Shown: positions 19 through 42,980, counted from the first letter of the stretch. The stretch: 42,980 nt of DNA from Eubacteriales bacterium (GCA_045121315.1 JBGVFW010000281.1:1-42980), one strand, 5' to 3'. Notes: generated by a model from the letters alone, not told the origin. Translations and numbers: made by a program.

Positions 19-1230
19 TTGCAGGATATTCTGAGCAATATGGCAAAGGGCGTTGATTTTAATGGTAACGATGCGATCGCGGCAAGCACTTCCGCTTATG
101 ATGATTTTGACGGTTCTGCTCCAACAGAGGAGTTGAGAAACGTACAGCCGAACATTTTTCGTTCAAGAGTGGACAATTTGTCCACTTCGGTGCAGTCAAG
201 TAAAATTAGGCGGTCGCGAAAAAACCAATTCAATCCTGTCATAGTTGCTATTGCGGTCGGTGCTGTTGCTATTATGGCGATTGTAGCAGCATTGATAATC
301 AAAGCAGGAAGAAACAGCGTCGCGGACGCGGCAACGCCGGATGAAGCGGTGGTTGTGGAAACAACCACCGCACCATCGTCGAATTCTCAGGGGCTTTACT
401 CAGCAGCGGAGCAGCTTGTTTCCGCTGCGATTGCAGAGCCGACAACGAGTATTCAGACGACAGCGCAGCCTACAACACATAGACCTACCGTCCAACCAAC
501 TACGGAAGTTGTAACGAAAGCGCCGCCAAAAGCGAGCACTGTGGAACGTCCGGAGAATACAGAACAGCAAACGGAAAACCATGCGCCTGAAAGAAGTGCA
601 GTCAGTCAAGAAAGCAAAAGCGATTCAGTAAATAACGGTAACTCAGGAAACGCTGATAACCGTCAAAAGCAGAATAGTTATATTGGCGGAGATCCGATTG
701 TTTCCTATAATGACGGCGGCGGTTATTACAATGCCGGAAACAATGAGGTCAGCAGCGTAAAGCTGTCCTACAGCTCCAAATCAATGAGTGTAGGCGACAC
801 TTTGCAACTGAGCGCAACTGTCAGTCCTGCAACAGCTAATCAGAGCCTTTCATGGAGCACTTCAAATTCTTCCGTTGTCAGTGTCAGCAATGGCTATCTT
901 GTTGCGCACCGTGCCGGTTCCGCAACGATAACCGCGAGAGCCGCAAACGGAAAATCTGCAACATGCTCCATAAAAGTGTCGGCACATGACAACAGCGCCG
1001 ACGTTCATCTTTCGGCAACGGAATACAACGTGTCAACCGGTCAGACTGTCACGATCACGCTTTATGGCGCGAATAGTGTTACATGGAACATGAGTAATAA
1101 TTTGCCGTACATTGTTTCTCATTCGTGCAATCAGCTGTCCCTCCGGGCGAGATCGTCCGGTCAAACTATCGTAACGGCAAAGGACAATCATACAGGCAAA
1201 ATCTATACCTGTACATATAATGTGAAATGA
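19..1230 (+). CDS. Membrane-anchored surface protein with bacterial Ig-like (Big_2-type) repeats; possibly 5'-truncated by the window edge
   Basis: The frame is open back to nt 1. One TM segment (VIVAIAVGAVAIMAIVAALII), an S/T/P-rich linker, then Big_2-like repeats (VGDTLQLSATVSPATANQSLSWSTSNSSVVSVSNGYLVAHRAGSATITA). Confidence 0.6.
   Translation: MQDILSNMAKGVDFNGNDAIAASTSAYDDFDGSAPTEELRNVQPNIFRSRVDNLSTSVQSSKIRRSRKNQFNPVIVAIAVGAVAIMAIVAALIIKAGRNSVADAATPDEAVVVETTTAPSSNSQGLYSAAEQLVSAAIAEPTTSIQTTAQPTTHRPTVQPTTEVVTKAPPKASTVERPENTEQQTENHAPERSAVSQESKSDSVNNGNSGNADNRQKQNSYIGGDPIVSYNDGGGYYNAGNNEVSSVKLSYSSKSMSVGDTLQLSATVSPATANQSLSWSTSNSSVVSVSNGYLVAHRAGSATITARAANGKSATCSIKVSAHDNSADVHLSATEYNVSTGQTVTITLYGANSVTWNMSNNLPYIVSHSCNQLSLRARSSGQTIVTAKDNHTGKIYTCTYNVK
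169..185. repeat. Palindrome copy 1, GTGGACAATTTGTCCAC (17/17)
   Basis: Perfect copy inside ORF 19..1230, read as VDNLST just before the TM segment. Flanked A...T. Confidence 0.95.
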
Positions 1231-7575: not shown

Positions 7576-7592
7576 GTGGACAAATTGTCCAC
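7576..7592. repeat. Palindrome copy 3, GTGGACAAATTGTCCAC (17/17)
   Basis: 4 nt after the terminator T-run and upstream of ORF 7643..7945. Confidence 0.95.
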
Positions 7593-9237: not shown

Positions 9238-9254
9238 GTGGACAATTTGTCCAC
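9238..9254. repeat. Palindrome copy 4, GTGGACAATTTGTCCAC (17/17)
   Basis: Sits a few nt after the terminator, the same arrangement as copy 3. Confidence 0.95.
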
Positions 9255-9842: not shown

Positions 9843-9859
9843 GTGGACAAATTGTCCAC
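9843..9859. repeat. Palindrome copy 5, GTGGACAAATTGTCCAC (17/17)
   Basis: Lies between the stop of the zeta-like gene (9862) and the start of 9364..9804. Confidence 0.95.
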
Positions 9860-12097: not shown

Positions 12098-12114
12098 GTG
12101 GACAAATTGTCCAC
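12098..12114. repeat. Palindrome copy 7, GTGGACAAATTGTCCAC (17/17)
   Basis: Intergenic between 11737..12075 and 12151..12411. Confidence 0.95.
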
Positions 12115-12458: not shown

Positions 12459-13046
12459 ATGACACAAGGAGAAATCTTATACTTTGCTTACCTTTACGCA
12501 AAGTCAAAATTGAAGTCTGAGTATGAAATGCAGAGAGAATACTGCACCAAACGCTTTGCGGAGCTGTCGGAACAGCTTGAACAGCTTGGCATGAAGTCAG
12601 CGCAGACAGAGCCGTTGCCCTGTAAGGTTGGCGATACGCTTTATCTCACTTCCTATGAAGCAGCTGACAAAAGGAAGGTTATCGAAAAGGTAACGGTAAC
12701 TGCTATGCAGCACTACGAGGATAATCATTACACACAAGCCGAAGTCAAATACGAGAATGGGTTTACAGGATTCGTTGACGAAGTGGATTTCTACACAACG
12801 CGCAGGGCGCATTTTACCTTGGAAGAAGCAACAGAAGCAGTCGAGCGGTTTAACCTCAAGGAAAAGGCTGTTGCCGTGATTTGGGATTACATCTATCTCA
12901 ACTTCGAAAACGGAATCGATTCATTGTCAGATTATGATTGGCTGAACGATTACGCATTGAGCGCAACAGCTCCTGACGGCAAAAGAATCGTTATCAGCTA
13001 TGACTGTGATACCAATACGGTTAAAGTGGACAATTTGTCCACTTGA
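12459..13046 (+). CDS. Hypothetical protein (195 aa)
   Basis: ORF behind leader copy 2. Its last six codons plus the stop are the palindrome (VDNLST-TGA). Confidence 0.55.
   Translation: MTQGEILYFAYLYAKSKLKSEYEMQREYCTKRFAELSEQLEQLGMKSAQTEPLPCKVGDTLYLTSYEAADKRKVIEKVTVTAMQHYEDNHYTQAEVKYENGFTGFVDEVDFYTTRRAHFTLEEATEAVERFNLKEKAVAVIWDYIYLNFENGIDSLSDYDWLNDYALSATAPDGKRIVISYDCDTNTVKVDNLST
13026..13042. repeat. Palindrome copy 8, GTGGACAATTTGTCCAC (17/17)
   Basis: Forms the 3' end of ORF 12459..13046. Confidence 0.95.
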
Positions 13047-13064
13047 CCGCAAAAGGAGAACGCT

Positions 13065-13265
13065 ATGGCACAGGTTATTATGAGTATGGAAGAATACAGG
13101 CAAACCGAAAACAGGCTCACGGCGATCGGAGAGCTGAAAGAAAAGGTCAGAAGCTCGGGCGTGTTCGAGGACAGCGCAAGCTGTTGGAACACCGAGAATG
13201 ACATTATCAGACCGTTTACCTTGGAAGAAACAAAGGCTCTGGTAAAGCAGATTTTGGAGCTGTAA
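13065..13265 (+). CDS. Hypothetical small protein (66 aa)
   Basis: SD AAGGAG upstream of the ATG. Helical/charged composition. Confidence 0.5.
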   Translation: MAQVIMSMEEYRQTENRLTAIGELKEKVRSSGVFEDSASCWNTENDIIRPFTLEETKALVKQILEL

Positions 13266-13325
13266 ATCATTTTTTGTTCTTCTGTGGGGGATTTTCAAAG
13301 AAAAAAATAAAGATTGTCAAAACCA

Positions 13326-13354
13326 TTGACAACCTTTTACAAATAATATATAAT
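13326..13354 (+). promoter_or_regulatory. Consensus sigma-70/SigA-type promoter
   Basis: TTGACA (13326-13331), 17 nt, TATAAT (13349-13354). The -35 lies in the inverted repeat TTGTCAA-aacca-TTGACAA. No ORF follows. Confidence 0.6.
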
Positions 13355-13360
13355 AATCTT

Positions 13361-13495
13361 GATGGATTTAAAAGTCTAAGTCCAAAGCAATCAGACCGAC
13401 TCGCAATCAGTCTGATTGCCCGTCAACAAAGCATTGGCACTGCTGAGTGACGTTAAGACTTAATCAGGTATATTATACCCGATTTCAGTTTTTTT
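13361..13495 (+). ncRNA. Candidate small RNA (about 135 nt)
   Basis: Consensus promoter. Outer helix AAGTCT..GTC / GAC..AGACTT. Perfect 10-bp hairpin GCAATCAGAC / GTCTGATTGC. Terminator-like hairpin 13462-13484 followed by T7. Confidence 0.35.
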
Positions 13496-13803
13496 GTCAA
13501 CACACCTGTGTCTGTTTTGCTTGGCGGCTTGCGGACACGGGTTTTCTTTTCATCAGTTACAATTGAATAGTATAGGACAGATGAAAATACAAAAGTCAGA
13601 CCCCGGATACGGTAAAAAGCTTTTGCCGTAAATCTAAGAGTGCGGTACTCCGATTAAATGCGCCACAACCTTTAGCGCGTCAGCAGCTAAAGCGAGCGAG
13701 CCAACACTTCTTCCACAAGTGTTGCTACCTGACCTGTAAGAGCTGCGGTGACGCGGTTCTGCCGAATACGAAGTAAACGCAGGAGAATGCAGTAGTGCGA
13801 TTC

Positions 13804-13820
13804 ACGGAGAAATTGTCCAC
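13804..13820. repeat. Palindrome copy 9, degenerate ACGGAGAAATTGTCCAC (14/17)
   Basis: Right arm intact, left arm decayed. About 125 nt from the tRNA fragment. Confidence 0.6.
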
Positions 13821-13946
13821 TCCTCTTGCTTCAGGAAAAGATATACTCTGTATCACCTATACCCAACTATACACTTACCCATATAATAATTTAAGCCAAG
13901 CGATTTAAGCAACTGACACGCCGCCTAAATCGCTTCACTTAAAACT

Positions 13947-13991
13947 TGGTTGCGGGAGCCGGATTTGAACCAACGACCTTCGGGTTATGAG
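13947..13991 (-). other. 3'-terminal 45 nt of a tRNA-Met(CAT)-like gene; putative att core (attP-like)
   Basis: The minus strand reads CTCATAA-CCCGA-AGGTC-GTTGG-TTCAAAT-CCGGC-TCCCGCA-A-CCA (anticodon loop to CCA). No matching 5' anticodon-stem strand or D-arm follows. The integrase gene is adjacent. Confidence 0.7.
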
Positions 13992-14069
13992 ACTGAGAGT
14001 TATTTGTTGAATTTTTTTGCAAAAAATATTACAATAAGGTTTCGATATTTTTTGCAAAGAGGTACCCAT

Positions 14070-15098
14070 ATGAACAAGAGAATAAAATTCAATGCACTTT
14101 CAGAGCTTTGGTTGCAACAAGCGACGTTGGGTGTCACCTATACATACAAAAGCAATTTAGAAAGCTATGTTAAGCACCTTAATAACGCTTTTGGTAATCA
14201 GCTTGTGGTAAATATTAAACCTTATGATATTGATGTACTGATTCAACAGCTGTATATTTGCAATCCCAATACCAACAAACCTTCTTCAAAAAAACTGCTT
14301 GGCAATATTATCAACTGTGCTGTTAGAATTTTCGATTTCGCAATCGAAAATGAGGTTATGTATAAAAATCCTGCCAAAAATAAAAAACAATCAATACCGA
14401 AGAACGCACCGAAAAAGACAGTTAACGCTATCAATTCAGAGCAACAGCAATTAGTTATAGAAACTGATCACCGCGCAAAAATCGCCGCCGTAATTATGAT
14501 GTTCATGGGTTTGAGAACAGGCGAAATCCTCGCTTTGGAATGGAACGACATAGATTTGGAAAACTACATTGTCTCGGTAAACAAGCGATTGCAGCGGATA
14601 AGCGGTAACAAATATATCGTTTCCGACGGCACAAAGAACGGGGAAACCCGACGCGTTACCATACCCAAAAACTTAGGGGCGTGGCTGAGCAAGCAAAAAT
14701 CCATTGCAACCTCTTATCTTGTGGCTCCCAACCGCTCAGGGACAATTCAGACACCTACTCAATGGAAAACCTTATGGACAAGCTACCAGAATGAAATCAA
14801 CTACAACTGCTACGTAAAAAAATGCGCGGAAAACGGAACCGTACCCGAAAGCAAATACGCGCCTACCAAAACACCGCAGGTTATCGCGGCGTTTACCCCA
14901 CACCAATTACGGCACACATACGCTACCCTATTATATATATCCGGCGTTGACGTGAAAACAGCATCTCAACTGCTGGGACATAGCAACATTACGATTACCT
15001 TAGATATCTACACACATCTCGATAAACAATTTCAGAAACTGAACATTCAAAAATTCGATAATTACATCAAGTCAGACCTTGACATTGAGAAAATATAA
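14070..15098 (+). CDS. int: Tyrosine site-specific recombinase (integrase)
   Basis: Start at ATG 14070 (SD AAAGAGG; the track start 13950 reads through the tRNA fragment). Motifs GLRTGEILAL, HQLRHTYATLL, LGHSNITITLDIYTH. Confidence 0.9.
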   Translation: MNKRIKFNALSELWLQQATLGVTYTYKSNLESYVKHLNNAFGNQLVVNIKPYDIDVLIQQLYICNPNTNKPSSKKLLGNIINCAVRIFDFAIENEVMYKNPAKNKKQSIPKNAPKKTVNAINSEQQQLVIETDHRAKIAAVIMMFMGLRTGEILALEWNDIDLENYIVSVNKRLQRISGNKYIVSDGTKNGETRRVTIPKNLGAWLSKQKSIATSYLVAPNRSGTIQTPTQWKTLWTSYQNEINYNCYVKKCAENGTVPESKYAPTKTPQVIAAFTPHQLRHTYATLLYISGVDVKTASQLLGHSNITITLDIYTHLDKQFQKLNIQKFDNYIKSDLDIEKI

Positions 15099-15225
15099 TA
15101 TACTGGAAATGATTGTACGATTGCTAAAATGTAATCGGCTTTTTTATTTTGCGCTAATTTCTCACAAACTTGTGTTGTTTTTCTATTGGACATCAAACGG
15201 AAAGACTGCACATTCAAATAAACAA

Positions 15226-15242
15226 GTGGACAAATTGTCCAC
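15226..15242. repeat. Palindrome copy 10, GTGGACAAATTGTCCAC (17/17)
   Basis: Lies 24 nt upstream of the parA ATG, within its promoter/leader region. Confidence 0.95.
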
Positions 15243-15266
15243 TCAGTAAAGAAAGGATAAGATTAA

Positions 15267-16058
15267 ATGGACAAGAACAAAAAACCTACTATCATCACCA
15301 TAGCCAATGAAAAAGGCGGCGTGGCGAAAACGACCTCGGCGATCAACATTGCCGCAGGGCTTTCCCTCAGAGGAAAAAAAGTGCTGCTCGTTGATATTGA
15401 CAGCCAAACCCACCTCACCAACTGGCTTGACTTCTGTTTTGACGGCAAACCTACCATCGCGGAGCTGATCTATCAGACGGTTGCTCAGTTTCCTGTCAAT
15501 CACGATGACTTCATCAGACACAACAACAAGCTTAACCTTGACTATATTCCCGCGACGCCGATGCTCGCGGGAGCCGTTACAACACTCAAGGCTGACCAGA
15601 CGGACGAAACAACCGTCTTTTCCCGTATCTTTTCTGATGGGTACTTCACAAAATACGACTATATCATCATCGACTGCTGCCCGTCGCTCGATTTACGAAT
15701 TACCAACGCGGTGATCTGTTCGGATATCCTTCTGATAACCGTGCAGGCTGACCCGATACCTTATCAGGGAACCGATAAAATGCTCAAAACGCTGCTTCGC
15801 ATGAAGCCTACCGCAAATATCGGCGAGGACGTTCTGATTCTCCCGACAATGGCAATGAATATTCAGGTCAGCAAGGCGGTTGTTGAAGCAATCTACGCAA
15901 GCTACGGAAACATGGTGCTTTCCCCTATTCCCTTCCGTGCTTCGGTTAAAAATTCTTCCGCAAATAAGACCGTACTGGTCAGAAGAACGTCCGACGATGT
16001 GGGTAGAGCCTACATGAAAGTCGTTGACACGCTGATTGGAGGTGAACACAATGGCTGA
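15267..16058 (+). CDS. parA: ParA/Soj-family partition ATPase
   Basis: Deviant Walker A NEKGGVAKTTSA. ParA-like length and layout (263 aa). Confidence 0.9.
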   Translation: MDKNKKPTIITIANEKGGVAKTTSAINIAAGLSLRGKKVLLVDIDSQTHLTNWLDFCFDGKPTIAELIYQTVAQFPVNHDDFIRHNNKLNLDYIPATPMLAGAVTTLKADQTDETTVFSRIFSDGYFTKYDYIIIDCCPSLDLRITNAVICSDILLITVQADPIPYQGTDKMLKTLLRMKPTANIGEDVLILPTMAMNIQVSKAVVEAIYASYGNMVLSPIPFRASVKNSSANKTVLVRRTSDDVGRAYMKVVDTLIGGEHNG

Positions 16059-16347
16059 AATCAAAAGGAAATATAACTGTAACTGTAAGGAATTTACAGT
16101 TGATGTACAGGGGAACTCCTACCTTGTCATTTGCGGCAAGCACGTCAATGGAGCCTACTGCGCTTTTCCAAATCTGAATATTGCCGCAGAGCTGTCTGGT
16201 TATGACGGCGACTACAGCTATAACGAAAAGAAGCTGCGTCTTGCCTTTGAAGGTCGCAACGGGGTTGACACGGCAGGCGTTATCCGGGAGCTTGCGAGAG
16301 TGATCACTATCGCCGTACAGAAACTTCCTGACGTATTGCCGTTTTAA
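16051..16347 (+). CDS. Hypothetical small protein between parA and parB
   Basis: ATG 16051 with SD GGAGGTG. Overlaps the parA stop by 8 nt. 98 aa. Confidence 0.5.
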   Translation: MAEIKRKYNCNCKEFTVDVQGNSYLVICGKHVNGAYCAFPNLNIAAELSGYDGDYSYNEKKLRLAFEGRNGVDTAGVIRELARVITIAVQKLPDVLPF

Positions 16348-16361
16348 GGGGGTGTGCGACT

Positions 16362-17753
16362 ATGCCAAAATTTAATATTAAAGCACAATCAATTCCTACC
16401 GTTGCAAGCGCCTATGCCGACATAATCGGTACAACCGACAATCAGATCGTTGAAATCAAAAACGAACTTATTGTCGAGGACAATAACCAACACTTTCAGA
16501 TTCACAACGATACTATTGAGCAGCTTGCCGAACACATTGCAAAAGACGGACAGCTCAGTCCGTGCATTGTTGCTCCCCTACCTGATGGTAAATATGAACT
16601 GATTGACGGTCGGCACCGTCGCAGAGCCGTTATTATGGCAGGACTGCCGACAACCAAATGTATCATCAAGACAGGCTTGAGTGACCAGGCGAAAAAAACG
16701 ATTCGCCTGACTTCAAACCTGATACGTAACAACGATTATTTACCGTCAGAGTTAGCCTTCGCCTACAAGGAACTCGCCGCTTTAGAGAATATGAAAACCA
16801 TTTCCGAAGAAACCAATCTCAGCAAAAAGAAGATTTACCGCTATATTCGTTTGACGTTCCTGATTCAGCCGCTTTTGAACAGAGTGGACAACGGGGCTAT
16901 CCCGATTATTGCGGCGGTCGAACTATCGTATCTCTCCAAAGAGGAACAGAGCGAGGTGTTTCAATTCCTCTTGAATCATTCCGATTGTAAAATCACAACG
17001 GCGATCGCCAAAGATATAAAAGAAAACCCATGTGATCTCGATTCGATTTTTTACGGTGTTGAGGAAATGGACAAATTGTCCACTCAGGACGACCGTTCCT
17101 CTGAACAATCCCAAAAATCAAATGATGAAGATTCTGTTAAAACTTTGGTGGACAAAGCACTGAAACCTTATCAAAAGCCTGAAAGCCAAAGAGTTAAGAT
17201 TGAGAACGACGAAGCTCACGTCGCGGAGATCACCGGTGAAGTGGACAATTTGTCCACTAAGAATGAGGAAATGGACGGTGATTCAGACGACGAGGTATTA
17301 CCCGGTATAAATACGGGCAAGCAGCCGATTGTCAACAGGTCTATAGTTGTTGGTAAAGACACCATGCTTTATCAGGACTGCGAGGGTAATGCGCACACCG
17401 TTGACGAGATTGAGGAGAATGTGCTGAGGATCATCTGCGAATATGTTATCAATACGTCTCACATGGATTACTATATCTTTCGGTATGCGTATGACGCAAG
17501 AGAGATTGTCAGCATGTGGAATCAGAATTTTATTAAATCCTCGCGCAAAACGACTGTTGGTGATAATCTGGTATACTCAAATAATAATCGAATTGTCGGT
17601 ATGGCAGATTGGAACGCCGACAAGCGAATGTTCGATATTGAAATACACGGCGAGCATTATATTTTCCTGCATAAAATTCTTCAAGATGTAGTGCGGCGCT
17701 ATATCAGAGAAAACTACACGGTCGAGCGAATCAAAGAGGTCTTGGGAGAATAA
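16362..17753 (+). CDS. parB: ParB-family protein with long C-terminal extension
   Basis: ParB N-terminal box YELIDGRHRRRAV, HTH-like LSKKKIYRYIRL, then an acidic linker carrying two palindrome copies. 463 aa. Confidence 0.85.
   Translation: MPKFNIKAQSIPTVASAYADIIGTTDNQIVEIKNELIVEDNNQHFQIHNDTIEQLAEHIAKDGQLSPCIVAPLPDGKYELIDGRHRRRAVIMAGLPTTKCIIKTGLSDQAKKTIRLTSNLIRNNDYLPSELAFAYKELAALENMKTISEETNLSKKKIYRYIRLTFLIQPLLNRVDNGAIPIIAAVELSYLSKEEQSEVFQFLLNHSDCKITTAIAKDIKENPCDLDSIFYGVEEMDKLSTQDDRSSEQSQKSNDEDSVKTLVDKALKPYQKPESQRVKIENDEAHVAEITGEVDNLSTKNEEMDGDSDDEVLPGINTGKQPIVNRSIVVGKDTMLYQDCEGNAHTVDEIEENVLRIICEYVINTSHMDYYIFRYAYDAREIVSMWNQNFIKSSRKTTVGDNLVYSNNNRIVGMADWNADKRMFDIEIHGEHYIFLHKILQDVVRRYIRENYTVERIKEVLGE
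17067..17083. repeat. Palindrome copy 11, ATGGACAAATTGTCCAC (16/17)
   Basis: Inside parB, read as MDKLST. Confidence 0.85.
17241..17257. repeat. Palindrome copy 12, GTGGACAATTTGTCCAC (17/17)
   Basis: Inside parB, read as VDNLST. Confidence 0.95.
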
Positions 17754-17776
17754 TACGGAGAAAGGAAAATAAAAAT

Positions 17777-18238
17777 ATGGATTTACAACTTATCGGCAAT
17801 ATTGCAAAGCTGAACCAAACCATTGAGAGCTTTAAAAGCAATTATCGGGTGGAGTTGATTTTAAACAGGAACCGCTTTATCCGTTCTGTTCTTTTGCTAA
17901 CCGTTATAGTGACTGCCGTTTACATCTTCTGCATGGTCTTTTTTCAGGCAAACATAGAAGCTGTTGTTGCCTTTGCAGCCGCCATTATACTGTGCTTCAT
18001 CATTTCCATAGTAGCGCTTAAACCATATAGTCAAACGGACGAAGCAGATAACAGCAGTGAAGAAGTGGACAATTTGTCCACTGACAGCACACCTGAGCCA
18101 AGCACCGAAACAGCTAAGCTGCCGGAGCTTTGGTATCAGGATAAGAATAATACTATTCATTCTTGTGATGAAATCAAGCCAAAGCATTTAAAAACAATCT
18201 GTGAGCGTATTCAATCTGTCATAGTGGAGGGACAATAA
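17777..18238 (+). CDS. Membrane protein with acidic C-terminal tail
   Basis: Two TM helices, then SSEEVDNLSTDSTPEP and a LWYQD...DEI...ICE segment resembling the ParB C-terminus. Confidence 0.55.
   Translation: MDLQLIGNIAKLNQTIESFKSNYRVELILNRNRFIRSVLLLTVIVTAVYIFCMVFFQANIEAVVAFAAAIILCFIISIVALKPYSQTDEADNSSEEVDNLSTDSTPEPSTETAKLPELWYQDKNNTIHSCDEIKPKHLKTICERIQSVIVEGQ
18065..18081. repeat. Palindrome copy 13, GTGGACAATTTGTCCAC (17/17)
   Basis: Inside ORF 17777..18238 (VDNLST). The shared flanks give GAAGAA-[palindrome]-TGRCAGC. Confidence 0.95.
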
Positions 18239-18469
18239 ATGTTATCTATAATTATAATACCTACAATGTTACTATTTGCATTATTTTACTTCTTAGGAGA
18301 TACATTGTTAGATGATGTAGTTGACGGAGAAATATCTAAAGCTACTAAAACCGATGATGAAGATTTGGAGAATGTTCAGTGCGAAGAAGTGGACAATTTG
18401 TCCACTGGCAGCGAAAGTGCTCCCGAACCAACAGATGATGAAGTATGGAGAGGTTTTCAGGATAAATGA
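18239..18469 (+). CDS. Small membrane protein with acidic tail
   Basis: One N-terminal TM helix, then CEEVDNLSTGSESAPEP. Abuts the previous stop and overlaps the next start. Confidence 0.45.
   Translation: MLSIIIIPTMLLFALFYFLGDTLLDDVVDGEISKATKTDDEDLENVQCEEVDNLSTGSESAPEPTDDEVWRGFQDK
18389..18405. repeat. Palindrome copy 14, GTGGACAATTTGTCCAC (17/17)
   Basis: Inside ORF 18239..18469 (VDNLST). Confidence 0.95.
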
Positions 18470-18714
18470 AAGTAACAAAAACAAGAGTTAGACTTCTCGG
18501 CGGTGACGGAATCTATGCGATAGCTTCCGTCACCATTGACGGCAAGCTGACTATTAACGATATTAAGGTTGAGCGTAAGGGAAAGGAATTAATCTTAAAG
18601 TTTCCGAGCACCGAAAACGCCAAAAGAAACAACCAACATTCAATTATTCCCGATGAAAGCCTTTTCAAAGAAATCAAGGCAAAAATCATTCAGAAAATTG
18701 CGGAATCTTCCTAA
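18466..18714 (+). CDS. SpoVG-family protein
   Basis: MKVTKTRVRLLGGDGIYAIASVTIDGKLTINDIKVERKGKELILKFPS matches the SpoVG N-terminal pattern (V.VRL....G..KA.ASVT.D....I.DI.V......L...PS). Confidence 0.7.
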   Translation: MKVTKTRVRLLGGDGIYAIASVTIDGKLTINDIKVERKGKELILKFPSTENAKRNNQHSIIPDESLFKEIKAKIIQKIAESS

Positions 18715-18846
18715 ACTTGCATTTACTTTTTCATTTTTCAATTTACTTTTACAAATCAACCGTGAGCAAAGGGCGGTTTATGGGACACCTCTTGATTTAT
18801 AATTAGAGTGTCAGCAGAAATCTCGATGTCAGAGAAAGGAGTTTTT

Positions 18847-19113
18847 ATGAGAGTTACATCAGTCGAGTTTGACGACAGATTGGCGACAAGACGTTTCTTA
18901 GGATACGCACATGTTACACTGGATAACCAGTATACCATTCGCAACATCAGCGTCAACTACCATCTGGTATTTTCTTTGCAAATGCCAAAGTCGGAGTATC
19001 ACAGGCTTGCGGCATACACGCCGCTTCCTGATAAAGCTCTGTATGACGAGATCGCGGAAGCGGTCATCAAAAGAGCATGTCAGAATCGCTTGTTGGACGT
19101 AAGTTTTTGTTAG
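18847..19113 (+). CDS. Second, divergent SpoVG-like protein
   Basis: ATG 18847 with SD AAAGGAG 7 nt upstream. MRVTSVEFDD...LGYAHVTLDNQYTIRNISV...LQMPK follows the same pattern. Confidence 0.55.
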   Translation: MRVTSVEFDDRLATRRFLGYAHVTLDNQYTIRNISVNYHLVFSLQMPKSEYHRLAAYTPLPDKALYDEIAEAVIKRACQNRLLDVSFC

Positions 19114-19125
19114 GAGGTTTTTATT

Positions 19126-19611
19126 ATGATTGAATACTATATTGATGATAAGACCGGTGAGAAAAAACCGAGACAACTTGTCGAAAACCAGATGTATCAA
19201 TTCTGGCTTGACCATCACAGCAATCGAATCACCGAGGAAGAAAAGGCAAAAGGCGTTGTTGCCAAACTGACCGCTGATTACTCCGGCGTTATTCTTGAGA
19301 ACGACAAAAAGGTGGTTCGGTTTGAATTTATCTACTTTGTCTTGTCTCCGGAAAACCCGCGTCAGACTTTTACCGACTTTATGGACGTAAAGGTTATCCT
19401 GCCGGAAAACGCTGTAAAACAGATTGACCCCGGTCAGCTGTGGAAGGTGGAATCCGACGCGAAAATTCTTTACAAGTGGAATCCTATGCGCGACCCGGTT
19501 TTCCTGTCAAAAATCCCTGTAAAGACGGCTCAAATGATCAAAATCATACGGCAATACAACAAACTCTACGGAGAAAATTTACCATATAAAACAAGGAGAA
19601 TTTCACAATGA
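19126..19611 (+). CDS. Hypothetical protein (161 aa)
   Basis: SD AGGAGG upstream. ATGA-type overlap with the next gene. No family recognised. Confidence 0.55.
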   Translation: MIEYYIDDKTGEKKPRQLVENQMYQFWLDHHSNRITEEEKAKGVVAKLTADYSGVILENDKKVVRFEFIYFVLSPENPRQTFTDFMDVKVILPENAVKQIDPGQLWKVESDAKILYKWNPMRDPVFLSKIPVKTAQMIKIIRQYNKLYGENLPYKTRRISQ

Positions 19612-19970: not shown

Positions 19971-19984
19971 TTCAATATGATAAG

Positions 19985-20017
19985 AAAAGCAGAGCAACAA
20001 AGCTCTGCTTTTCTGTT
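19985..20017 (+). terminator. Rho-independent terminator
   Basis: AAAAGCAGAGC-aacaaa-GCTCTGCTTTT followed by a T-rich tail. Confidence 0.6.
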
Positions 20018-20033
20018 CATTCGGAGGAATGTA

Positions 20034-20810
20034 ATGAAGCGTAAAATATTAGTTTGTATCGCGGTTTTCTTTCTTCTGTTGGGCGCAGCTCTGTTGATTG
20101 TTCCGCGTGTATCAAATTATGTCGGCGTTCAGATAGCCCATCATACCGTAGACGAATTTATCAACCTGAAAGATAATATCGTTGAAGGAACTCGACCAAC
20201 AGAGCAGGAAAAAGAATCTGACGGCGAAAATAGCCGTTCTGAAACAAAAACAAAAACTGTGCTCTACAGAGTTGATATTGACCGGTTGTATCAAGACAGC
20301 GTTGCATACAATGAAATGCTGAAAACAAATCAGAATCATCTGCTGATTGATGAAACATCTTATCTGAATCCTGCGTTGAATCTGTCAGAATACGGAGTTC
20401 CAAATGGTGTATACGGATATGTTGCAGCTCCGTCAATCAATATGGAATTGCCCATCTATTTGGGCGGCAATGATTATAACATGGCGCTCGGCGCAGCACA
20501 CTTGACGTATACTTCGCTGCCGATCGGCGGTAAAAATACTAATAGCGTCTTGTCCGGTCATACCGGATATATCGGGCGAATCTTTTTTGACTATATCAGA
20601 AATCTTAACGTAGGCGACGAGGTAGTTATTGAAAACTACTGGAGTAAGCTGACCTATCAGGTGATAGATAAAAAGATTTATAAAAACTATCAATCTTCTG
20701 CTTGTTATTTGACGGAGGGCAAAGACTTACTGACAATGCTCACTTGTGTTTCGGACGGACAGGGAGGATTTGACAGATACTATGTGATATGTGAAGGAGT
20801 GAAAAAATGA
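20034..20810 (+). CDS. Sortase (class C-like)
   Basis: ATG 20034 with SD GGAGGA. N-terminal TM. INMELPIYLGG, SVLSGHTGY (His), LLTMLTC (Cys), DRYYV (Arg). Confidence 0.8.
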   Translation: MKRKILVCIAVFFLLLGAALLIVPRVSNYVGVQIAHHTVDEFINLKDNIVEGTRPTEQEKESDGENSRSETKTKTVLYRVDIDRLYQDSVAYNEMLKTNQNHLLIDETSYLNPALNLSEYGVPNGVYGYVAAPSINMELPIYLGGNDYNMALGAAHLTYTSLPIGGKNTNSVLSGHTGYIGRIFFDYIRNLNVGDEVVIENYWSKLTYQVIDKKIYKNYQSSACYLTEGKDLLTMLTCVSDGQGGFDRYYVICEGVKK

Positions 20811-21613
20811 ACGCGATACTTCATTGGCATGACGACAGCTTTACTTACCGTAACGCCGTTGTCTTAGACACCGGCTATATTCTCCTTAACGGAGAAAACG
20901 AAGGACTCCAAAGCGGAATATATCGTATCATCAACAATGAAAGGGCTTGTTTCGGAGAATACACCGATCAGATAGAAATCCCCGAACAGCACAAAGCATA
21001 CGATGTGTTCTTTATCAGCGATTACATATTTAAAAAGGGATTTGATTCCGCAGGAATGGAGCAACTCAATTCTTTTGTTCGCGATATAACCTCTCGCGGA
21101 TTTGTTGACCTCAATTATACCCGCGATCGAACCTTATACGTAAGAAACGTTGGACATTCTTATTACAATAAGCTACTGTTTGTTTCAAAAGCTATCCATA
21201 CGCATATAAAGTACATGAGCGACGAAGAAGCAACTGCGCTTATCCATGATTTGTTTGGATTTGAGAAGAAGTTTATTAAGATCATTCACGAAATCGAACA
21301 GGCTGAGATCAATGTCAACACCGGCGAAATCAGAGTCACGGGAGCCATCAATCGCCGTCCGATATTTATTTCCGAAAAATGCTTTTATGTTCGGTTTGAC
21401 ATCAAATGCGGCAACCTTGCTCACAATCAATATGAAGCATATTATTACGACGAGGATTATGTTGATGATGATTACCTTAATGACTTTATCTTTGAATCCT
21501 ATCCTATCTTTACCCCGTTTTGTGATTTGCGCGAAATTCGTTCCTTGCTTGCATATTATGGGTGGGAAGAAATGAAACACAACTTTATAAATGAAAAACA
21601 ACTATTTACATAA
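20807..21613 (+). CDS. Hypothetical protein (268 aa)
   Basis: ATGA overlap with the sortase gene. No family recognised. Confidence 0.55.
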   Translation: MNAILHWHDDSFTYRNAVVLDTGYILLNGENEGLQSGIYRIINNERACFGEYTDQIEIPEQHKAYDVFFISDYIFKKGFDSAGMEQLNSFVRDITSRGFVDLNYTRDRTLYVRNVGHSYYNKLLFVSKAIHTHIKYMSDEEATALIHDLFGFEKKFIKIIHEIEQAEINVNTGEIRVTGAINRRPIFISEKCFYVRFDIKCGNLAHNQYEAYYYDEDYVDDDYLNDFIFESYPIFTPFCDLREIRSLLAYYGWEEMKHNFINEKQLFT

Positions 21614-29777: not shown

Positions 29778-30629
29778 ATGGAGAGTTTGGATAGTTCGGG
29801 CAGGCGGATGTATTCGGTGCTTTTCATAAAGAGCGTCAATCAAACAACCGTTCTGGAAGAATATCAATACGGAGATATGATAGTCAGACTTCCACTTGGA
29901 GCATTGTTGTTTACTGTCGTGGAAGCTGAATTGCAACATACAGAGATCACGCCACCGCATGTTTTGTATGACCTCTATTATCTCTCGGAAGCGGAGAAAA
30001 AGCAGATTGCACGGCTGACAGAATATGTCGTAAAAATCAGTCAGGGAGACGAAGCGTTTGACCGTAGTTCTCTTAAAAACCTTTATTACACTATTCTTCC
30101 TCGCGGTCATGACTTCTGTTATTTGTTTGACAACTCTGAACGATACCGGTTCCGACGGCTGCGTTCAAAGCTGACATTACCATTTGGAAATACCACTGAA
30201 TTCGTTTTCAAAAAGCTCGCCGAAAAGTACGCGAGTTTTTCTTTCTCGGCGCAGACAGAATTTCATACACTGACAGAGTTGTGTGCTCTTTCGCTTTTTG
30301 AAATACTTGAAAGTGGACAAATTGTCCATCGCTGTGAATGTGGCAGATGGTATGTTGCTGAACCTTTGACGAAGGAATGCGATAGCTGTAAAAGGCAAAA
30401 AACAACTGACTATAACAGAAGTTACAGTAAGAGAAAAACCGTGCAGGAGTTCAAAAGAGTCTACAACAAGTTATTCATGCGAACAACACGAAATACGCAA
30501 TCGATCTCTGATACACAACTCTTTGAAGCGTTCAAAAATGAGTGGGCATTGTTAAAGATAAAATATCACAACTCGCCGGATTTTGAACAAAAGAAAATAG
30601 AATTTTTACAATCTGAAAGGTGGAAATAA
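29778..30629 (+). CDS. Hypothetical zinc-ribbon protein, distant relative of 6079..6792 / 6818..7531
   Basis: LSLFEILESGQIVHRCECGRWYV...CDSCKRQ aligns with ILFYEIIKANRK...IIRCKRCNRIFA...YC...C. A helical basic C-terminal half follows, as in the pair. Confidence 0.6.
   Translation: MESLDSSGRRMYSVLFIKSVNQTTVLEEYQYGDMIVRLPLGALLFTVVEAELQHTEITPPHVLYDLYYLSEAEKKQIARLTEYVVKISQGDEAFDRSSLKNLYYTILPRGHDFCYLFDNSERYRFRRLRSKLTLPFGNTTEFVFKKLAEKYASFSFSAQTEFHTLTELCALSLFEILESGQIVHRCECGRWYVAEPLTKECDSCKRQKTTDYNRSYSKRKTVQEFKRVYNKLFMRTTRNTQSISDTQLFEAFKNEWALLKIKYHNSPDFEQKKIEFLQSERWK
30313..30329. repeat. Palindrome copy 16, GTGGACAAATTGTCCAT (16/17)
   Basis: Inside ORF 29778..30629, read as SGQIVH immediately before the zinc ribbon. 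Confidence 0.85.
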
Positions 30630-36972: not shown

Positions 36973-36989
36973 GTGGACAAATTGTCCGC
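36973..36989. repeat. Palindrome copy 17, GTGGACAAATTGTCCGC (16/17)
   Basis: Lies 29 nt upstream of the -35 of the dinJ-yafQ promoter, in the divergent region before the giant ORF. Confidence 0.85.
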
Positions 36990-40000: not shown

Positions 40001-42980
40001 GATACGCGGCAGCGGTATAGAAAGCGGAAAATTCAGAATCTATGAGCAATTTCAAAAAGGTTTGTCAGCAAAAGAAAATATCACTTTTCTGAAAAATGAG
40101 TATGGCATTGGCGGTTGTTCAGAAATCATTCCCTATACCGGTATCGCAGAAGATCATAACGGTCAGGGAATCCTTCTGCGGCTTGGTTATCAAGAAAACT
40201 CACCGCGTCAGCAATTGACTTGGAAGCAAGTTGAAAAACGAATTGGTGAGCTGATACAAAACGCTCTTTATCTTAATCAATCGGAAAAAGAACACTATCC
40301 TGATTGGCTGAAACAACAGGAACAGCGCAGAGCTGAACTGAAATCAGAGCGTGAATTAAGAGATGCTGTATATCAGCCGTCTGAGCCAACAAAAGCTGCT
40401 TACAGTCCGACAATGCAGGAATATTTCAAGGTAAAGGGCGAAAACCCTGACAGTATTATTCTGTTCCAGATTGGCGCGTTTTATGAAGCAATGGGAGACG
40501 ACGCAAAAGTAGTGTCCGAAGCGCTCGAATTGATTGTTACTAGCCGCCGTTTGTTAGGCGACGAAGGCATAGAAATGTGCGGCTTTCCTGAAAACCGACT
40601 GGAAACAAACCTGAATATGCTCCTTGACAGAGGTTATTCAGTTGGTGTTTCAAGTGTTGATGAAAACGGCAACCGTTCTTTTATCCTGATGGTATCAGAT
40701 AGGGCGCATGAGCCGATAAATTCAGAGCCGGTAGGCAGGATTGATTATCTGACTGCGGAAGGTGAGCTTGATCGCTCAATCGAGTACACCAATCCCACAA
40801 TGCTTGAAAAGGATATAAAGGAAGAAAGTACCTATGATGTAAAAATGGCAGTCTATCTCTATCGTGATAAAGACGGTAGGGTTATGCAGCATGATTTTAT
40901 TGATAGGTTGCCAAATCCCTTGCAGCACTTTGAGATTATCGACAAACCTGCTTCACAGTCTGAGCATGACGTTCTTTTGAATCGGGCGCAGGAGCTGATA
41001 AGTGAGTACATGGACGCAGAATTTGGCAGTGATAATGACGAACCGTATGAACTCCCGGAAGATATTTCTGACGTTAATCTGGCGTATACAACTACCGAAG
41101 ATGAACAGCATGAAATTACTGCTGACGCAAACCTCGTCGATTTCCGTATCGAAACGAAAATTGACGGCAAGGTCGTCCGAACAGAGCAGTATGACTCTTT
41201 ACTGGATATGGTGGAAAACGGTCTGGACGGATTGAGGTTTGACGACCTTGTGTATGTCAGCGATGAAGAACTGGCACCGTTCTATGATGAACCAACAGAG
41301 GAAAAAAACGACGTGCTTCCTGCTGAAAAGCCTTCATTGAAGCTGACGCAGGAAGATATTGACAGTCTGATCATTCAGCGCGCAACCACTGCCAACGCAA
41401 AGCTGCGTGCTTTTCATGCGGTACACGGCGGTGAGAGCGACGACACAATTATTAGCATTCTCAGAGAGGGATACAGTCAAAACGGCAAGACAATAAGATC
41501 GGACAGCGGAATGCCATTGTATATCAGCTGTGACTTTAGAGGAATCTTTGTAGGAGACTTTGAGAATCGTTTTACACCTGTGCTTCTGACCTATCATCAA
41601 CTGTTACAGCGTATCAAGGAACTTACGCTTACCAATCGCTATCTTTCAGATTCGGAGTATTTGGCGTATGCGGAGGAATATCGTCTCTTTGATAAAGCCG
41701 AAAGACTGAGAGAAGTGAATTTTCAATATAGTGCCGGAGATACCATCTATCTCAGCGGACAGCCGTATATCATTTCTGATTTGAGCGGTGACACTGTAAC
41801 GGTTTACCAACCGGATGCGCCGTTGTTTGTTCATAACTATGACCGTGCGGAGTTTGAAGCGCTGCTGCTGCAAAATATTGACGACAATATGCAGCTTGTT
41901 GTCAAGCCGCAAACGCATTATGAGATCTATCAGCTTGTCGATTCAGAAAGAACGGATAAATACATGTTTTTATCCTTAAAAGCGCTTGAAGATTCTCATC
42001 TTACTATTGAGCGTTCCAACTATACCTTAGTGTATACAGGAACTCTTGGGGAGAGCGAAAACATTGATTCTCTGTATGAGCGTTTTAACATTCATGCTCC
42101 ATCTGACTTCTATGGTTATTCAATGTCGGTTTCTGATGTTGTAGTGCTCACAAGAAATGATGTGAGCGTGGCTTACTATTGTGACGACGTAGGCTTCACC
42201 GAAATTCCGGGATTTATGACTTACGAGCGCATAAGGGACTATGTGTTGTTTCATCCGCAGGAGCGCACCGTTTCATGGATTTATTTCAATCCTGATGGCA
42301 ATCTTGGGAATGGACAAATTGTCCACGAATTTATTTCCGTAGACGAACTGGCAAGCCGTATTGATTCGTTGACGAGAGACGAGTTGCCGGATTATTTTTC
42401 AGATTTCGGAACGCAGCAAGTGTATGACATTGAGAATCCTGAATGGTATACAACCGAGTATGACCAATACGCCAATGAACAGCCTGCCGGTTTGAGAATG
42501 GTTTGGAATTCACACATGTCAGATGAAAACTACGAAGCCTTTAAGGATATTGTCAAGGAATTTCAGCAGGCTTCAAAAGTTTATCAAGCGCCGCAAGTTG
42601 TTATCAATTTTTCGGAGCACCCTGCACTGTATCAAATTTCTCATGAAAAAACAAGACTCAGTTTTACCTATGCGAACGAGCTGCTTGGCAGACTGGATAT
42701 GTTGGAGAATGCCAAACGCGAAAATCCTGCGGCTGGTTTCTACTACAAAACCGATTACACCGTTTATGGTTCTGAAGACGGAATAAATCTTGTTCGTCTG
42801 AACGGACGATATGACCTTGCCGATGGTGAAACAAATCTGGTCGGTCATATTGAACGTGTCAGAAAAGCAGAAAGCGGCGAAAACGCAGAGACGTTAAGCG
42901 CTTGGCTGTCTATGTTGCAGGACAGCATTGAGAGCAATCCTTTGACAGAAGCGGAAAAGAATGAGATTGACCAGATAGTG
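37077..42980 (+). CDS. Giant multidomain 'polyvalent' protein, 3'-partial (at least 1968 codons, runs off the window)
   Basis: Not in the supplied ORF track because no stop is reached. The frame is open from the stop at 37008-37010 to nt 42980. ATG 37077 follows SD AAGGAG (alternative ATG 37053). Domains recognised by eye are an ArdC-N-like domain (about 37150-37320), a Pol-beta-type nucleotidyltransferase VSGSRCRALEHNGSDLDVVIEV (about 37860-38170), a MutS domain-I-like segment MQEYFKVKGENPDSIILFQIGAFYEAMGDDA...MCGFPE (about 40409-40700), and a YodL-like domain (about 41915-42215). Confidence 0.85.
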   Translation, partial: MNEKYLKLTKQFNDTVSQLSQSPAEFNRFLRVAAFNYRLTFQNAVLAYAQDTGSDLLLTYEQWQSYRRVPKRHTKATLLFDVNHRGRYVVTFPMSRTVVDKRIHRYRELRLFDYRNDAAVVEALKAVFQTDADNLAEILYAENLKRFESNFDEAYPAFENETDFLAKAVTNMLMCRFGEEMPYKTFSFSDGINRDNIEHIYQMVIDVFRAEYAEIVTALPAELEKAREQKEDNDLSFDVTGKQDVISLFKEKTNELFHSIDGLSPSEIEQIVREYAESIFAENEISAEIVGIAVSGSRCRALEHNGSDLDVVIEVQSDTKETALFNLLNEHAFEIGGVRVDINPIKADETGTLSEYLPTVEKYLNQIEILDYGKYIIDSSSVFHAKRGSIYTIPIDTSPNLRRRLEKVGLVPRDEMTDVVFESDNGSWNKLIIPDRYGNKTNSIDISDVLSQGEMSVAQKILNDVIEREQSIEKAKQNINKDDIEILQTLEPRKSVLNFSQDELARTSVWSERFAADIGKKSPFYRSENGEWRDRDESKSQIITVEAVETDFQSVRNDIKAQKIKRGITVNKDTLWSIQISRKGLEDSVKYGFNHKNGNIYSLLYAIQNIVANSVLLDSNISENNNNNKAYNTAFMHKLYAICRIGDQPVLAKLTVEEFLDGKGSTLKRMYNLQDIKTEPLRHIEFTDNQLARSVLNGSEISVADLFRVVKALDKDFYLNKQPHEQAKVFQVITNAGDDGGYDEKPEHGTLDEAIQAGNQYIADGYIGFSVYNEETKRIEYVSGQFDVESAYSAEILEINQIPVPSDLNNQYVQGDTNFNIFDEEAERKKYPFFGHSEIVNEMLSATPYLKANLDEIRAYFESETDAVVRQQYIRGVFNDDFSEVILSDGTRVGYKTYENGLLIWKGRYPNREGQRFLHWDNVVGHFDAMRMLGMLHNGAFANDMHNGQLTLVQGINDEPEKAFTFSQEVIDKALIRGSGIESGKFRIYEQFQKGLSAKENITFLKNEYGIGGCSEIIPYTGIAEDHNGQGILLRLGYQENSPRQQLTWKQVEKRIGELIQNALYLNQSEKEHYPDWLKQQEQRRAELKSERELRDAVYQPSEPTKAAYSPTMQEYFKVKGENPDSIILFQIGAFYEAMGDDAKVVSEALELIVTSRRLLGDEGIEMCGFPENRLETNLNMLLDRGYSVGVSSVDENGNRSFILMVSDRAHEPINSEPVGRIDYLTAEGELDRSIEYTNPTMLEKDIKEESTYDVKMAVYLYRDKDGRVMQHDFIDRLPNPLQHFEIIDKPASQSEHDVLLNRAQELISEYMDAEFGSDNDEPYELPEDISDVNLAYTTTEDEQHEITADANLVDFRIETKIDGKVVRTEQYDSLLDMVENGLDGLRFDDLVYVSDEELAPFYDEPTEEKNDVLPAEKPSLKLTQEDIDSLIIQRATTANAKLRAFHAVHGGESDDTIISILREGYSQNGKTIRSDSGMPLYISCDFRGIFVGDFENRFTPVLLTYHQLLQRIKELTLTNRYLSDSEYLAYAEEYRLFDKAERLREVNFQYSAGDTIYLSGQPYIISDLSGDTVTVYQPDAPLFVHNYDRAEFEALLLQNIDDNMQLVVKPQTHYEIYQLVDSERTDKYMFLSLKALEDSHLTIERSNYTLVYTGTLGESENIDSLYERFNIHAPSDFYGYSMSVSDVVVLTRNDVSVAYYCDDVGFTEIPGFMTYERIRDYVLFHPQERTVSWIYFNPDGNLGNGQIVHEFISVDELASRIDSLTRDELPDYFSDFGTQQVYDIENPEWYTTEYDQYANEQPAGLRMVWNSHMSDENYEAFKDIVKEFQQASKVYQAPQVVINFSEHPALYQISHEKTRLSFTYANELLGRLDMLENAKRENPAAGFYYKTDYTVYGSEDGINLVRLNGRYDLADGETNLVGHIERVRKAESGENAETLSAWLSMLQDSIESNPLTEAEKNEIDQIV
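42310..42326. repeat. Palindrome copy 18, ATGGACAAATTGTCCAC (16/17)
   Basis: Inside the giant ORF, read as NGQIVH. Confidence 0.85.

Follow-up and report, generated by a model that had tools for sequence, protein, structure and literature searches.

A palindromic 17-mer, GTGGACAAWTTGTCCAC, lies in frame within coding DNA at positions 17067-18405 of a 42,980-nucleotide stretch from a Eubacteriales bacterium (GCA_045121315.1 JBGVFW010000281.1:1-42980), referred to here as the window. The locus raises the question of whether the peptide or the DNA is under selection and, if the DNA, what recognizes it. The window is part of a Firmicutes-type conjugative element with a GC content of 42%. Two of the four copies in this interval are in parB, the gene for a partition protein, and one is in each of the two small open reading frames (ORFs) that follow, designated TM1 and TM2. 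The selected object is the DNA palindrome, and its codons are therefore frozen where it lies in a gene. Comparison with related loci suggests that the palindrome is probably a double stranded DNA site for a dimeric helix-turn-helix (HTH) protein of a Ruminococcus/Clostridia-type conjugative element, the likeliest binder being the element's own ParB (16362-17753). The genes at the centre of the argument are as follows.

15267..16058, plus strand: parA, Walker-type partition ATPase (Pfam AAA_31 E=3e-38, with CbiA and MipZ matches; found in 63 related loci)
16036/16051..16347, plus strand: small gene between parA and parB for a DUF6618 protein (PF20323 E=1.6e-6; found in 15 related loci)
16362..17753, plus strand: parB (PF02195, ParB_N, E=5e-10)
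17058..17351, plus strand: linker-coding part of parB with two palindromes (defined by AlphaFold2 pLDDT; the linker is hypervariable in homologues apart from the motif)

Distribution of the palindrome

The palindrome has the architecture AAGTGGACAA-W-TTGTCCACTT (8-1-8, with an odd centre). With up to three mismatches allowed, 34 matches to the 17-mer were found on the two strands of the 42,980-bp window compared to 0.11 expected from shuffles, and 0 of 100 shuffled windows reached the observed count. The 34 strand-matches correspond to 18 places, 16 with at most two mismatches and two weaker. No frame of the 17-mer contains a stop codon, as read directly from the sequence. An earlier note on this DNA, made from the sequence alone, had located the four in-frame copies and had described the readings V/M-D-N/K-L-S-T (169, 13026, 17067, 17241, 18065, and 18389) and G-Q-I-V-H (30313 and 42310). 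Both observations were reproduced, and all four copies at 17067-18405 encode x-D-[N/K]-L-S-T.

For comparison 73 loci were gathered, 14 from genomes, 53 from metagenomes, and six from other look-ups. Three of these six (L068, L072, and L073) are related to the window; the other three (L069-L071) are IMG/VR matches to a 19-mer and have no homology to it. The loci were retrieved via ParB, and for most relatives coverage was ±10 kb around parB. The relatives came from Ruminococcus, Ruminococcaceae, and other Clostridia of the rumen and human gut. They share the gene order int-parA-(DUF6618)-parB-(variable small ORFs)-SpoVG-...-sortase. Sites were confined to the element, with 94 in 295 kb on the element side and one in 186 kb of host flank upstream of int. 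GGACAA-N-TTGTCC was the top 6-1-6 palindrome in the related loci, with 202 occurrences compared to 21 for the runner-up. The sites in the window are listed below.

169..185: cytoplasmic juxtamembrane tail of a Big_2 membrane protein, V-D-N-L-S-T; position kept in L072
6052..6068: 10 nt before the ATG, led by a ribosome-binding site, of a DUF6076 gene
7576..7592: intergenic, between a terminator hairpin and a promoter-like TAGACA-17-TATAAT; the site ends 8 nt before the promoter
9238..9254: intergenic, directly 3' of the same terminator hairpin as at 7576
9843..9859: 2 nt past the zeta-toxin stop codon and followed by TTTTATTTTT; homologous site in L072
11163..11179: between the HTH_26 gene and the antitoxin/zeta operon; gives a -35-like TTGTCC 16 nt from the TATAAT of that operon
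12098..12114: between ORFs 11743-12075 and 12151-12411
13026..13042: last six codons (VDNLST-stop) of ORF 12459-13046
15226..15242: 24 nt upstream of the parA start codon; the site starts 41 nt before the ATG
17067..17083: copy 1, ATGGACAAATTGTCCAC, in parB, M-D-K-L-S-T, aa 236-241
17241..17257: copy 2, GTGGACAATTTGTCCAC, in parB, V-D-N-L-S-T, aa 294-299
18065..18081: copy 3, GTGGACAATTTGTCCAC, in TM1 (ORF 17777-18238), V-D-N-L-S-T
18389..18405: copy 4, GTGGACAATTTGTCCAC, in TM2 (ORF 18239-18469), V-D-N-L-S-T
30313..30329: within the third DUF6076 gene, G-Q-I-V-H
36973..36989: divergent region between relB/yafQ and the polyvalent-protein gene
42310..42326: within the gene for a polyvalent protein of >1968 aa, G-Q-I-V-H; the ORF runs past the window end

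The copies at 6052 and 9238 are probably non-coding, though they fall in mechanical ORFs. The tail of ORF 12459-13046 with its site is kept in orthologues at 61-77% identity, and L072 has the same 17-mer there. A composite unit, a terminator-like hairpin (AGCTGTGAAAC...GTTTCACAGCTTTTT) with the palindrome directly after it, occurs twice (7532-7592 and 9192-9254). Of the three paralogous DUF6076 genes (6079-6792, 6818-7531, and 29778-30629), the palindrome lies 10 nt ahead of the start in one and within the gene in another.

Across 88 non-redundant site contexts the conserved unit is 21 bp, AAGTGGACAAWTTGTCCACTT (duplex form AAGTGGACAATTTGTCCACTT), and not 17. Information content was restricted to positions -10 to +10, and the surroundings were unconserved. 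The central base was A or T in 174 of 176 (A 87, T 87), meaning that both orientations are equally frequent. Thirty-five of the 88 sites fall between genes or in short ORFs, and the intergenic copies are identical to the coding copies. Variant sites change symmetrically on both arms. Locus L013 has GAGGACAATTTGTCCTC at all three of its sites, with symmetric arms, and the encoded peptide becomes S-E-D-N-L-S-S. The IMG/VR scan with the 19-mer gave three single matches, which lack homology to the window and are uninformative on a link to ParB. One of these contigs, L070, contains three related palindromes (GCGGACAAATTGCCCGT, GTGGACAAATTGTCCAC, and GCGGTCAAATTGTCCGT) in 330 nt (6186-6515); this trio may be an independent operator cluster with the same core.

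A function of the site as an RNA or DNA hairpin, that is, an intrinsic terminator, an mRNA stabilizer or processing site, or a single-strand signal in transfer, was considered. The 24-nt RNA of the site folds at -11 kcal/mol (z = -4.6) into a hairpin of 8 bp with three nucleotides in the loop, and the copies at 9843, 11163, and 15226 precede T-runs and have terminator-like scores. These three are the copies with a T-run among eight clear and one weak in a scan of 5500-16500 (11 kb); most copies have none. Most copies lie in ORFs or upstream of genes, and those in long ORFs of one operon cannot terminate efficiently. The sequence is conserved beyond what pairing needs, no other hairpin sequences are enriched, and the equal use of both orientations (A/T centre 87 each) also speaks against a hairpin. 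A hairpin role may apply to the three copies with T-runs, and as an explanation of the palindrome it is very improbable.

Codon use at the site and the ParB linker

ParB was modelled with AlphaFold2 on a 41-sequence alignment. In the model the protein is folded at aa 28-230 (N-terminal region) and at aa 335-463 (C-terminal domain), and a linker (aa 233-330) joins the two. The predicted local distance difference test score (pLDDT) was below 50 at aa 233-257 and 267-330, the exception in the linker being a weak helix at 258-270. The structure prediction proposed in the earlier note thus placed both ParB copies within a linker of pLDDT <50. Among the best 120 ParB homologues all 112 that are full length have x-D-[NK]-L-S-x one to four times, in a linker that is hypervariable apart from it. 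Among representatives clustered at 50% identity the motif is restricted to approximately the best 13 clusters (E <= 1e-60), and more distant ParBs are without it.

In the DNA of the relatives the canonical copies within parB are GTGGACAAWTTGTCCAC or a one-base outer variant, always in frame 0, down to 37% ParB identity. For a codon test instances were picked by peptide alone, giving 48 in 25 non-redundant parB genes. The motif Asp was GAC in 43/48 (background 37%), Leu was TTG in 36/48 (background 15%), Ser was TCC in 36/48 (background 11%), and Val was GTG in 26/26 (background 12%). Across the 24-25 non-redundant parB genes compared, the motif pattern is GAC-AAW-TTG-TCC. Strictly invariant columns elsewhere in the same genes used on average 5.2 codons for Leu and 5.5 for Ser, with an overall major-codon fraction of 0.56. 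The synonymous-codon comparison suggested in the earlier note therefore came out as a frozen motif among invariant residues that vary freely in codon. In the ParB homologue proteins the residue before Asp was V in 167, M in 13, A in 5, T in 4, L in 4, E in 1, and Ile in none. The absence of Ile means that the third base of this codon is fixed as G.

The alternative is that V-D-N/K-L-S-T is a short linear peptide motif, for example one contacting ParA or a membrane partner, with DNA conservation secondary. All 112 full-length close homologues have the motif, and its copies within parB all use one frame. It is also kept with changed codons in two clades. In the L012 clade a duplicate has decayed to GAGGACAACTTATCTAC and continues to read EDNLST (peptide ENEDNLST). 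A human-gut clade (L010, L023-L041, L057, and L059) has CAGATAATTTATCTG at the first linker site, at parB codons ~244-249, reading TETDNLSA; canonical sites remain elsewhere in those elements. The gut variant is itself a perfect 7-1-7 palindrome reached via symmetric synonymous changes. The earlier note had reasoned that orthologues conserving the peptide with freely varying codons would indicate a protein motif. This was not so in approximately 36 of the 48 instances, and free codons were seen only in these two clades, where the site has decayed or changed. Otherwise the codons stay fixed in genes whose synonymous positions are saturated elsewhere, intergenic sites make up 40%, and seven to ten coding copies are in other frames. 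L013 alters the peptide (SEDNLSS) and keeps the palindrome, and the Val is swapped for M, A, T, L, and E and never for I. A DKLST written in other codons in L051 does not count towards a peptide motif, since near-identical relatives have EKSSNTS/EKLSNTS at the aligned position and the L051 peptide is a chance variant. A peptide motif as the primary object of selection is accordingly most unlikely.

Outside parB the frame reading VDNLST was used 15 times, GQIVH seven times, and WTICP three times (chi-square against equal use, p ~0.01). Besides the tails in the window, the site is found at a sortase C-terminus in L004 and L015. The site was shown to be tolerated almost only in the hydrophilic V-D-N/K-L-S-T frame and mostly in segments that are disordered (the ParB linker, by AlphaFold2) or seemingly tolerant by position (tails and termini). 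Of the two possibilities raised in the earlier note, the first was a DNA site maintained in disordered linkers under a dual protein and DNA constraint. The frozen codons, the identical intergenic copies, and the low linker pLDDT agree with the DNA part. The protein part appears to be tolerance, a benign frame in a disordered place, and not a function of the peptide. The expectation that homologues without the palindrome would also be without the acidic linker did not hold. The gut and L061 clades keep acidic linkers without a canonical site, so the linker is not there merely to host sites.

ParB as the candidate binder

Practically all relatives (for example L001, L002, L003, L006, and L007) have a site 36-41 nt ahead of the parA start codon, and in nearly all of them sites occur both before parA and inside parB. 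The Walker ParA gene adjoins parB and is syntenic in 63 loci. The only genes common to the site-bearing loci are int, parA, parB, and SpoVG.

The earlier note's labels for the genes were upheld, with a ParB_N domain in 16362-17753 and hydrophobic N-termini in ORFs 17777 and 18239. The PF02195 match (E=5e-10) spans aa 28-120 of ParB. A PDB profile search returned Helicobacter pylori Spo0J 4umk (E=4e-16, query 12-222), Noc, and ParB, with 'DGRHRRRA' of the window's ParB aligned to 'GERRLRA' of 4umk. Foldseek matched Noc, ParB, Spo0J, and KorB at a probability of 1.00 over 195-206 columns including the DNA-binding domain. An HTH follows the N-terminal domain in the AlphaFold2 model (helices 144-151 and 155-172). 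No known family was identified for the C-terminal domain, which had no match to solved ParB, Spo0J, or KorB chains, most of them C-terminally truncated constructs. Site and recognition helix also differ together. An A at half-site position -7 is found only in L013, in all six half-sites, and there the recognition helix reads TTKEVQRY compared to SKKKIYRY. Clades with a C at -7 differ in the recognition-helix region as well.

It is unlikely, although less so than a hairpin or a peptide motif, that the DNA site serves another protein, SpoVG-like or a regulator encoded outside the stretches examined, with ParB using another centromere. SpoVG co-occurs with the sites in 56 loci, most relatives were covered only ±10 kb around parB, and the unrelated HTH of M.SsoII has a proven operator with the same 13-bp core, GGACAAATTGTCC (PMC3978073). 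Because that operator shares the core, sequence alone does not point to ParB. Every site-bearing clade does have this ParB, with the qualification that the loci were retrieved via ParB. HTH_26 and all the other upstream genes of the window are absent from the relatives, and there were no methyltransferase domains in the annotated ORFs of the window. A fixed site before the parA-parB operon together with a cluster inside parB is the typical ParB/KorB arrangement, and in L013 site and ParB recognition helix have changed together. To our knowledge, the reported DNA targets of SpoVG are not 8-1-8 palindromes. Two tandem SpoVG-like genes lie 3' of parB in the window (18466-18714 and 18847-19113), and SpoVG is conserved as ParA and ParB are. 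The HTH_26 protein (11182-11433), whose gene adjoins the site at 11163, was rejected as a candidate binder because none of the related parB loci L001-L068 has it. No protein resembling KorA or TrbA was identified as a partner.

Several points weigh against ParB acting at this site as DNA-binding partition protein and regulator. The assignment comes from co-occurrence, fold, and a limited co-variation in approximately four clades. Of the motifs for CTP, R86, R88, N119, and R122 are kept, while box II is GRHRRRA and not GERRxRA (Glu to Arg, R84) and box III is SNLIR and not ENLQR (Glu to Ser, S118). As the catalytic Glu of box III is Ser and box II is altered, a canonical CTP-driven clamp cycle is uncertain in this ParB. 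The L012 and gut clades keep D-N-L-S without the canonical site, which leaves a small possibility of some constraint at the peptide level. In ParB the breakpoints that separate the window from L003 or L008 are at ~aa 190-207, away from the palindromes. The sites at 6052, 15226, and 36973 precede start codons at a short distance or fall between divergent genes, and those at 7576 and 11163 overlap or abut promoter-like elements. The promoter scan gave clear overlap at few sites only, and for this reason a role as regulator stays an inference.

If ParB is the binder, the site would act as a centromere (parS) and/or an operator. ParB dimers would load at the one site before parA, at the four in 17067-18405, and at about a dozen more across the element, and loaded ParB would organize partition with ParA. 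At promoter-abutting sites ParB would probably repress transcription, like KorB on RK2. A further reading, tentative and rather doubtful, is that the element has turned the disordered ParB linker into its centromere/operator array, with 18 nt that are at once a ParB loading site and six tolerated codons of ParB. Copy number (one to four, plus spill-over in the chimeric ORFs described below) would be tuned by unequal crossing-over, and ParB sitting within its own gene and shortly beyond it would form a roadblock that auto-limits parB and gates the long downstream operon (SpoVG, sortases, and pilus). If true, this would couple the dosage of the partition protein to conjugation-gene expression.

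Chimeric ORFs, the wider element and known systems

The features of the two ORFs downstream of parB are given below.

17777..18238, plus strand: TM1, chimeric ORF; the N-terminal 79 aa belong to a 196-aa family with two transmembrane (TM) segments, the C-terminal 74 aa consist of fragments of the parB linker and of the start of the C-terminal domain (CTD)
18015..18082, plus strand: 68-nt patch in TM1, 100% identical to L068 parB linker 3268-3335; the match ends precisely at the palindrome's 3' edge
18095..18205, plus strand: ParB-homologous fragment in TM1, 81% DNA identity to L017 parB 1055-1165
18239..18469, plus strand: TM2, chimeric small ORF; hydrophobic N-terminus, parB-linker fragment, and tail of a pre-SpoVG gene
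18351..18438, plus strand: 88-nt parB-linker fragment in TM2, 91% identical to L017 parB 933-1020, site included

The hydrophobic N-termini of both ORFs are followed by ParB-derived sequence. In pairwise BLASTP ParB aligned with ORF 17777 at E=3e-7, including ALKPY, and ORF 17777 aligned with ORF 18239 at E=8e-6; GAAGAA-(17-mer)-TGRCAGC is shared as the earlier note had described. Homologues of TM1 (P0122-P0126) diverge after aa 79 and have another C-terminus without a site, and the C-terminal part of TM1 matched ParB allele P0076 at E=1.5e-26. The fragment at 18095-18205 covers the linker's end and, of the ParB C-terminal domain, no more than the first strands and half a helix; it is truncated and non-foldable. 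In TM2 the parB-linker fragment joins, at 18438, the final codons of the gene that lies before SpoVG in L017. The 'FQDK-stop' ending of TM2 does not derive from 'YQDK' of ParB and is due to this fusion to the tail of an L017-like pre-SpoVG gene. No site was present between parB and SpoVG in the other 67 related loci (L001-L067), and the chimera was seen again only in near-identical contigs (P0121). The larger acidic module that ParB and the two membrane proteins were said to share is thus real as similarity, and as a conserved module it dissolves into a patchwork specific to this lineage. The second possibility of the earlier note, a coding module copied between genes together with the site, was borne out, the C-terminal parts of TM1 and TM2 being parB-linker DNA of other alleles.

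The motif flanks in ParB linkers fell into 79 left and 74 right clusters with 111 combinations, and one right flank occurred with five left flanks. This reassortment is what unequal crossing-over between identical 17-29-nt copies would produce. Recombination, unequal or between alleles, uses the identical copies as junctions and accounts for the one to four copies per linker, the reshuffled flanks, and the two chimeric ORFs. Palindromes are not supported as general breakpoints between elements, as the window/L003 and window/L008 breakpoints are at ~aa 190-207 of ParB; only the linker-internal and TM1/TM2 junctions coincide with sites. The par operon is itself a mosaic. ParA of L003 is 99.6% identical to that of the window and its ParB 60%, and ParB of L008 has 85% identity to the window over aa 1-200 and 40% beyond. 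The C-terminal half of ParB is exchanged as one module. In L008 (10001-11313) parB has a stop after aa 206, with the 3' part and its two palindromes still recognizable; it may be a pseudogene or an assembly error.

That the palindrome is in frame in unrelated genes and marks mosaic junctions would also fit a selfish in-frame mobile repeat of the type of Rickettsia palindromic elements or PARCELs, or a crossover site of an integrase or resolvase. The toxin cassette bracketed by two direct copies would fit as well. The unit is only 21 bp, has no conserved flanks or target duplications, and its positions are orthologous between elements and not scattered. Crossover spacers are 6-8 bp in tyrosine recombinases and 2 bp in serine recombinases, and the 1-bp centre misfits the staggered cleavage of either. 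A mobile or crossover origin is scarcely plausible. The bracketed epsilon/zeta cassette is flanked by two direct copies of the palindrome followed by TTTTATTTTT (9843-9869 and 11163-11189). L072 (8570 and 8953) has the same bracketing, with zeta there a 32-aa remnant, which suggests that the toxin cassette was inserted or exchanged at the sites.

The other annotated features of the window are as follows.

1241-3343: topoisomerase III
3642-4616: DUF3991-Toprim primase
4630-5538: Rep-like HTH_36 protein
9862-10848, minus strand: zeta toxin
11182-11433: HTH_26 protein
13950-15098: tyrosine integrase
18466-18714: SpoVG
19977-29773: sortases and SpaA-type pilins
30631-31014: SSB
32988-34793: relaxase
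34915-36069: ArdC
36364-36955, minus strand: RelB/YafQ
37077 to the window end (42980): polyvalent protein of >1968 aa with LPD3, MutS_I, YodL, and LPD25 domains, open at the window end

The genes upstream of int in the window (TopoIII, primase, Rep-like, two DUF6076, zeta, and HTH_26) are absent upstream of int in the relatives; in L072 this gene set sits after a TraG-like gene instead. The window therefore appears to be a plasmid or else a circular or excised form. The stretch at 13.3-13.95 kb is low in coding and has perfect TTGACA-17-TATAAT promoters on both strands, and it could hold an attachment site. BLASTn of 15200-19200 against PLSDB gave no matches, and tBLASTn of ParB against PLSDB gave matches to the N-terminal domain only, at <=40% identity. 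The element family thus has no close relative in PLSDB, and no annotated relative was available for comparison.

The locus is an unusually clean natural case of dual coding, in which a putative protein-binding site stays letter-perfect in genes across relatives with saturated synonymous sites. It is accommodated by one benign frame and by disordered or tolerant regions (linker, tails, and termini). A likely centromere/operator, AAGTGGACAAWTTGTCCACTT, is thereby defined for a large, uncharacterized family of Ruminococcus/Clostridia conjugative elements of the rumen and human gut, and the 21-bp site is a simple sequence tag with which to delimit these elements in metagenomes. Short identical putative binding sites drive variation in linker length and the formation of chimeric small ORFs, and 'membrane proteins' such as 17777-18238 and 18239-18469 call for caution in annotation. 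Synonymous recoding separates peptide from site and offers a direct experimental handle.

Among known systems, Rickettsia palindromic elements are in-frame palindromic repeats in coding DNA. PARCELs are likewise in-frame palindromic repeats in coding DNA (PMC2996958). As in these, palindromic DNA lies in frame in unrelated genes with the peptide tolerated, but in those the mobile unit has ~100 bp or more and is conserved from end to end, compared to 21 bp at orthologous positions here. The regulatory site of M.SsoII and M.Ecl18kI, AGGACAAATTGTCCT (PMC3978073, PMC2760811), has the identical 13-bp core GGACAAATTGTCC and is bound by two HTH domains. Its binder is the N-terminal HTH of a C5-methyltransferase, and it is a single site in a restriction-modification intergenic region. 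A literature search with the core sequence returned only this operator. The shared core was judged to be convergence, as there is no such methyltransferase in the window.

ParB sites in coding DNA, even in parB, are already known. In Bacillus subtilis a parS site reportedly lies inside the spo0J (parB) coding sequence, a finding said to go back to Lin and Grossman in 1998. Both systems have a ParB CTPase-fold domain followed by an HTH, an adjacent Walker ParA, and palindromic sites clustered at the par operon, at least one of them inside the parB ORF, where coding DNA tolerates sites. The site described here differs in being a 17/21-bp odd palindrome (8-1-8) unrelated in sequence to TGTTNCACGTGAAACA and in occurring in one to four copies, all in the linker-coding region and always in one frame. 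This ParB has Ser in place of the box III Glu, its C-terminal domain is without a match to solved chains, and the carrier is a conjugative element with an integrase. No description was found in the literature of one to four frozen copies arrayed in the disordered linker of ParB and conserved in a large, uncharacterized family of conjugative elements from gut and rumen, with a single frame tolerated and linkers reshuffled at the sites.

RK2 KorB has 12 OB sites. The window likewise combines a ParB-CTPase-family protein on a conjugative element with a palindromic operator present about a dozen or more times, a copy before the parA(incC)-parB(korB) operon, and some copies that abut promoters. The dual role in partition and regulation would be a further likeness, and Foldseek matched KorB 8qa8 and 8qa9. 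In contrast to KorB-OB, no KorA/TrbA-like partner was identified here, more than half of the sites are genic, the host is Gram-positive, and identity to KorB is ~22% over the N-terminal 200 residues. KorB-OB of the IncP plasmid RK2, an operator system of the ParB-CTPase family (PMC11790492), is by analogy probably the closest functional counterpart, and Spo0J and Noc appear to be the closest structural relatives.

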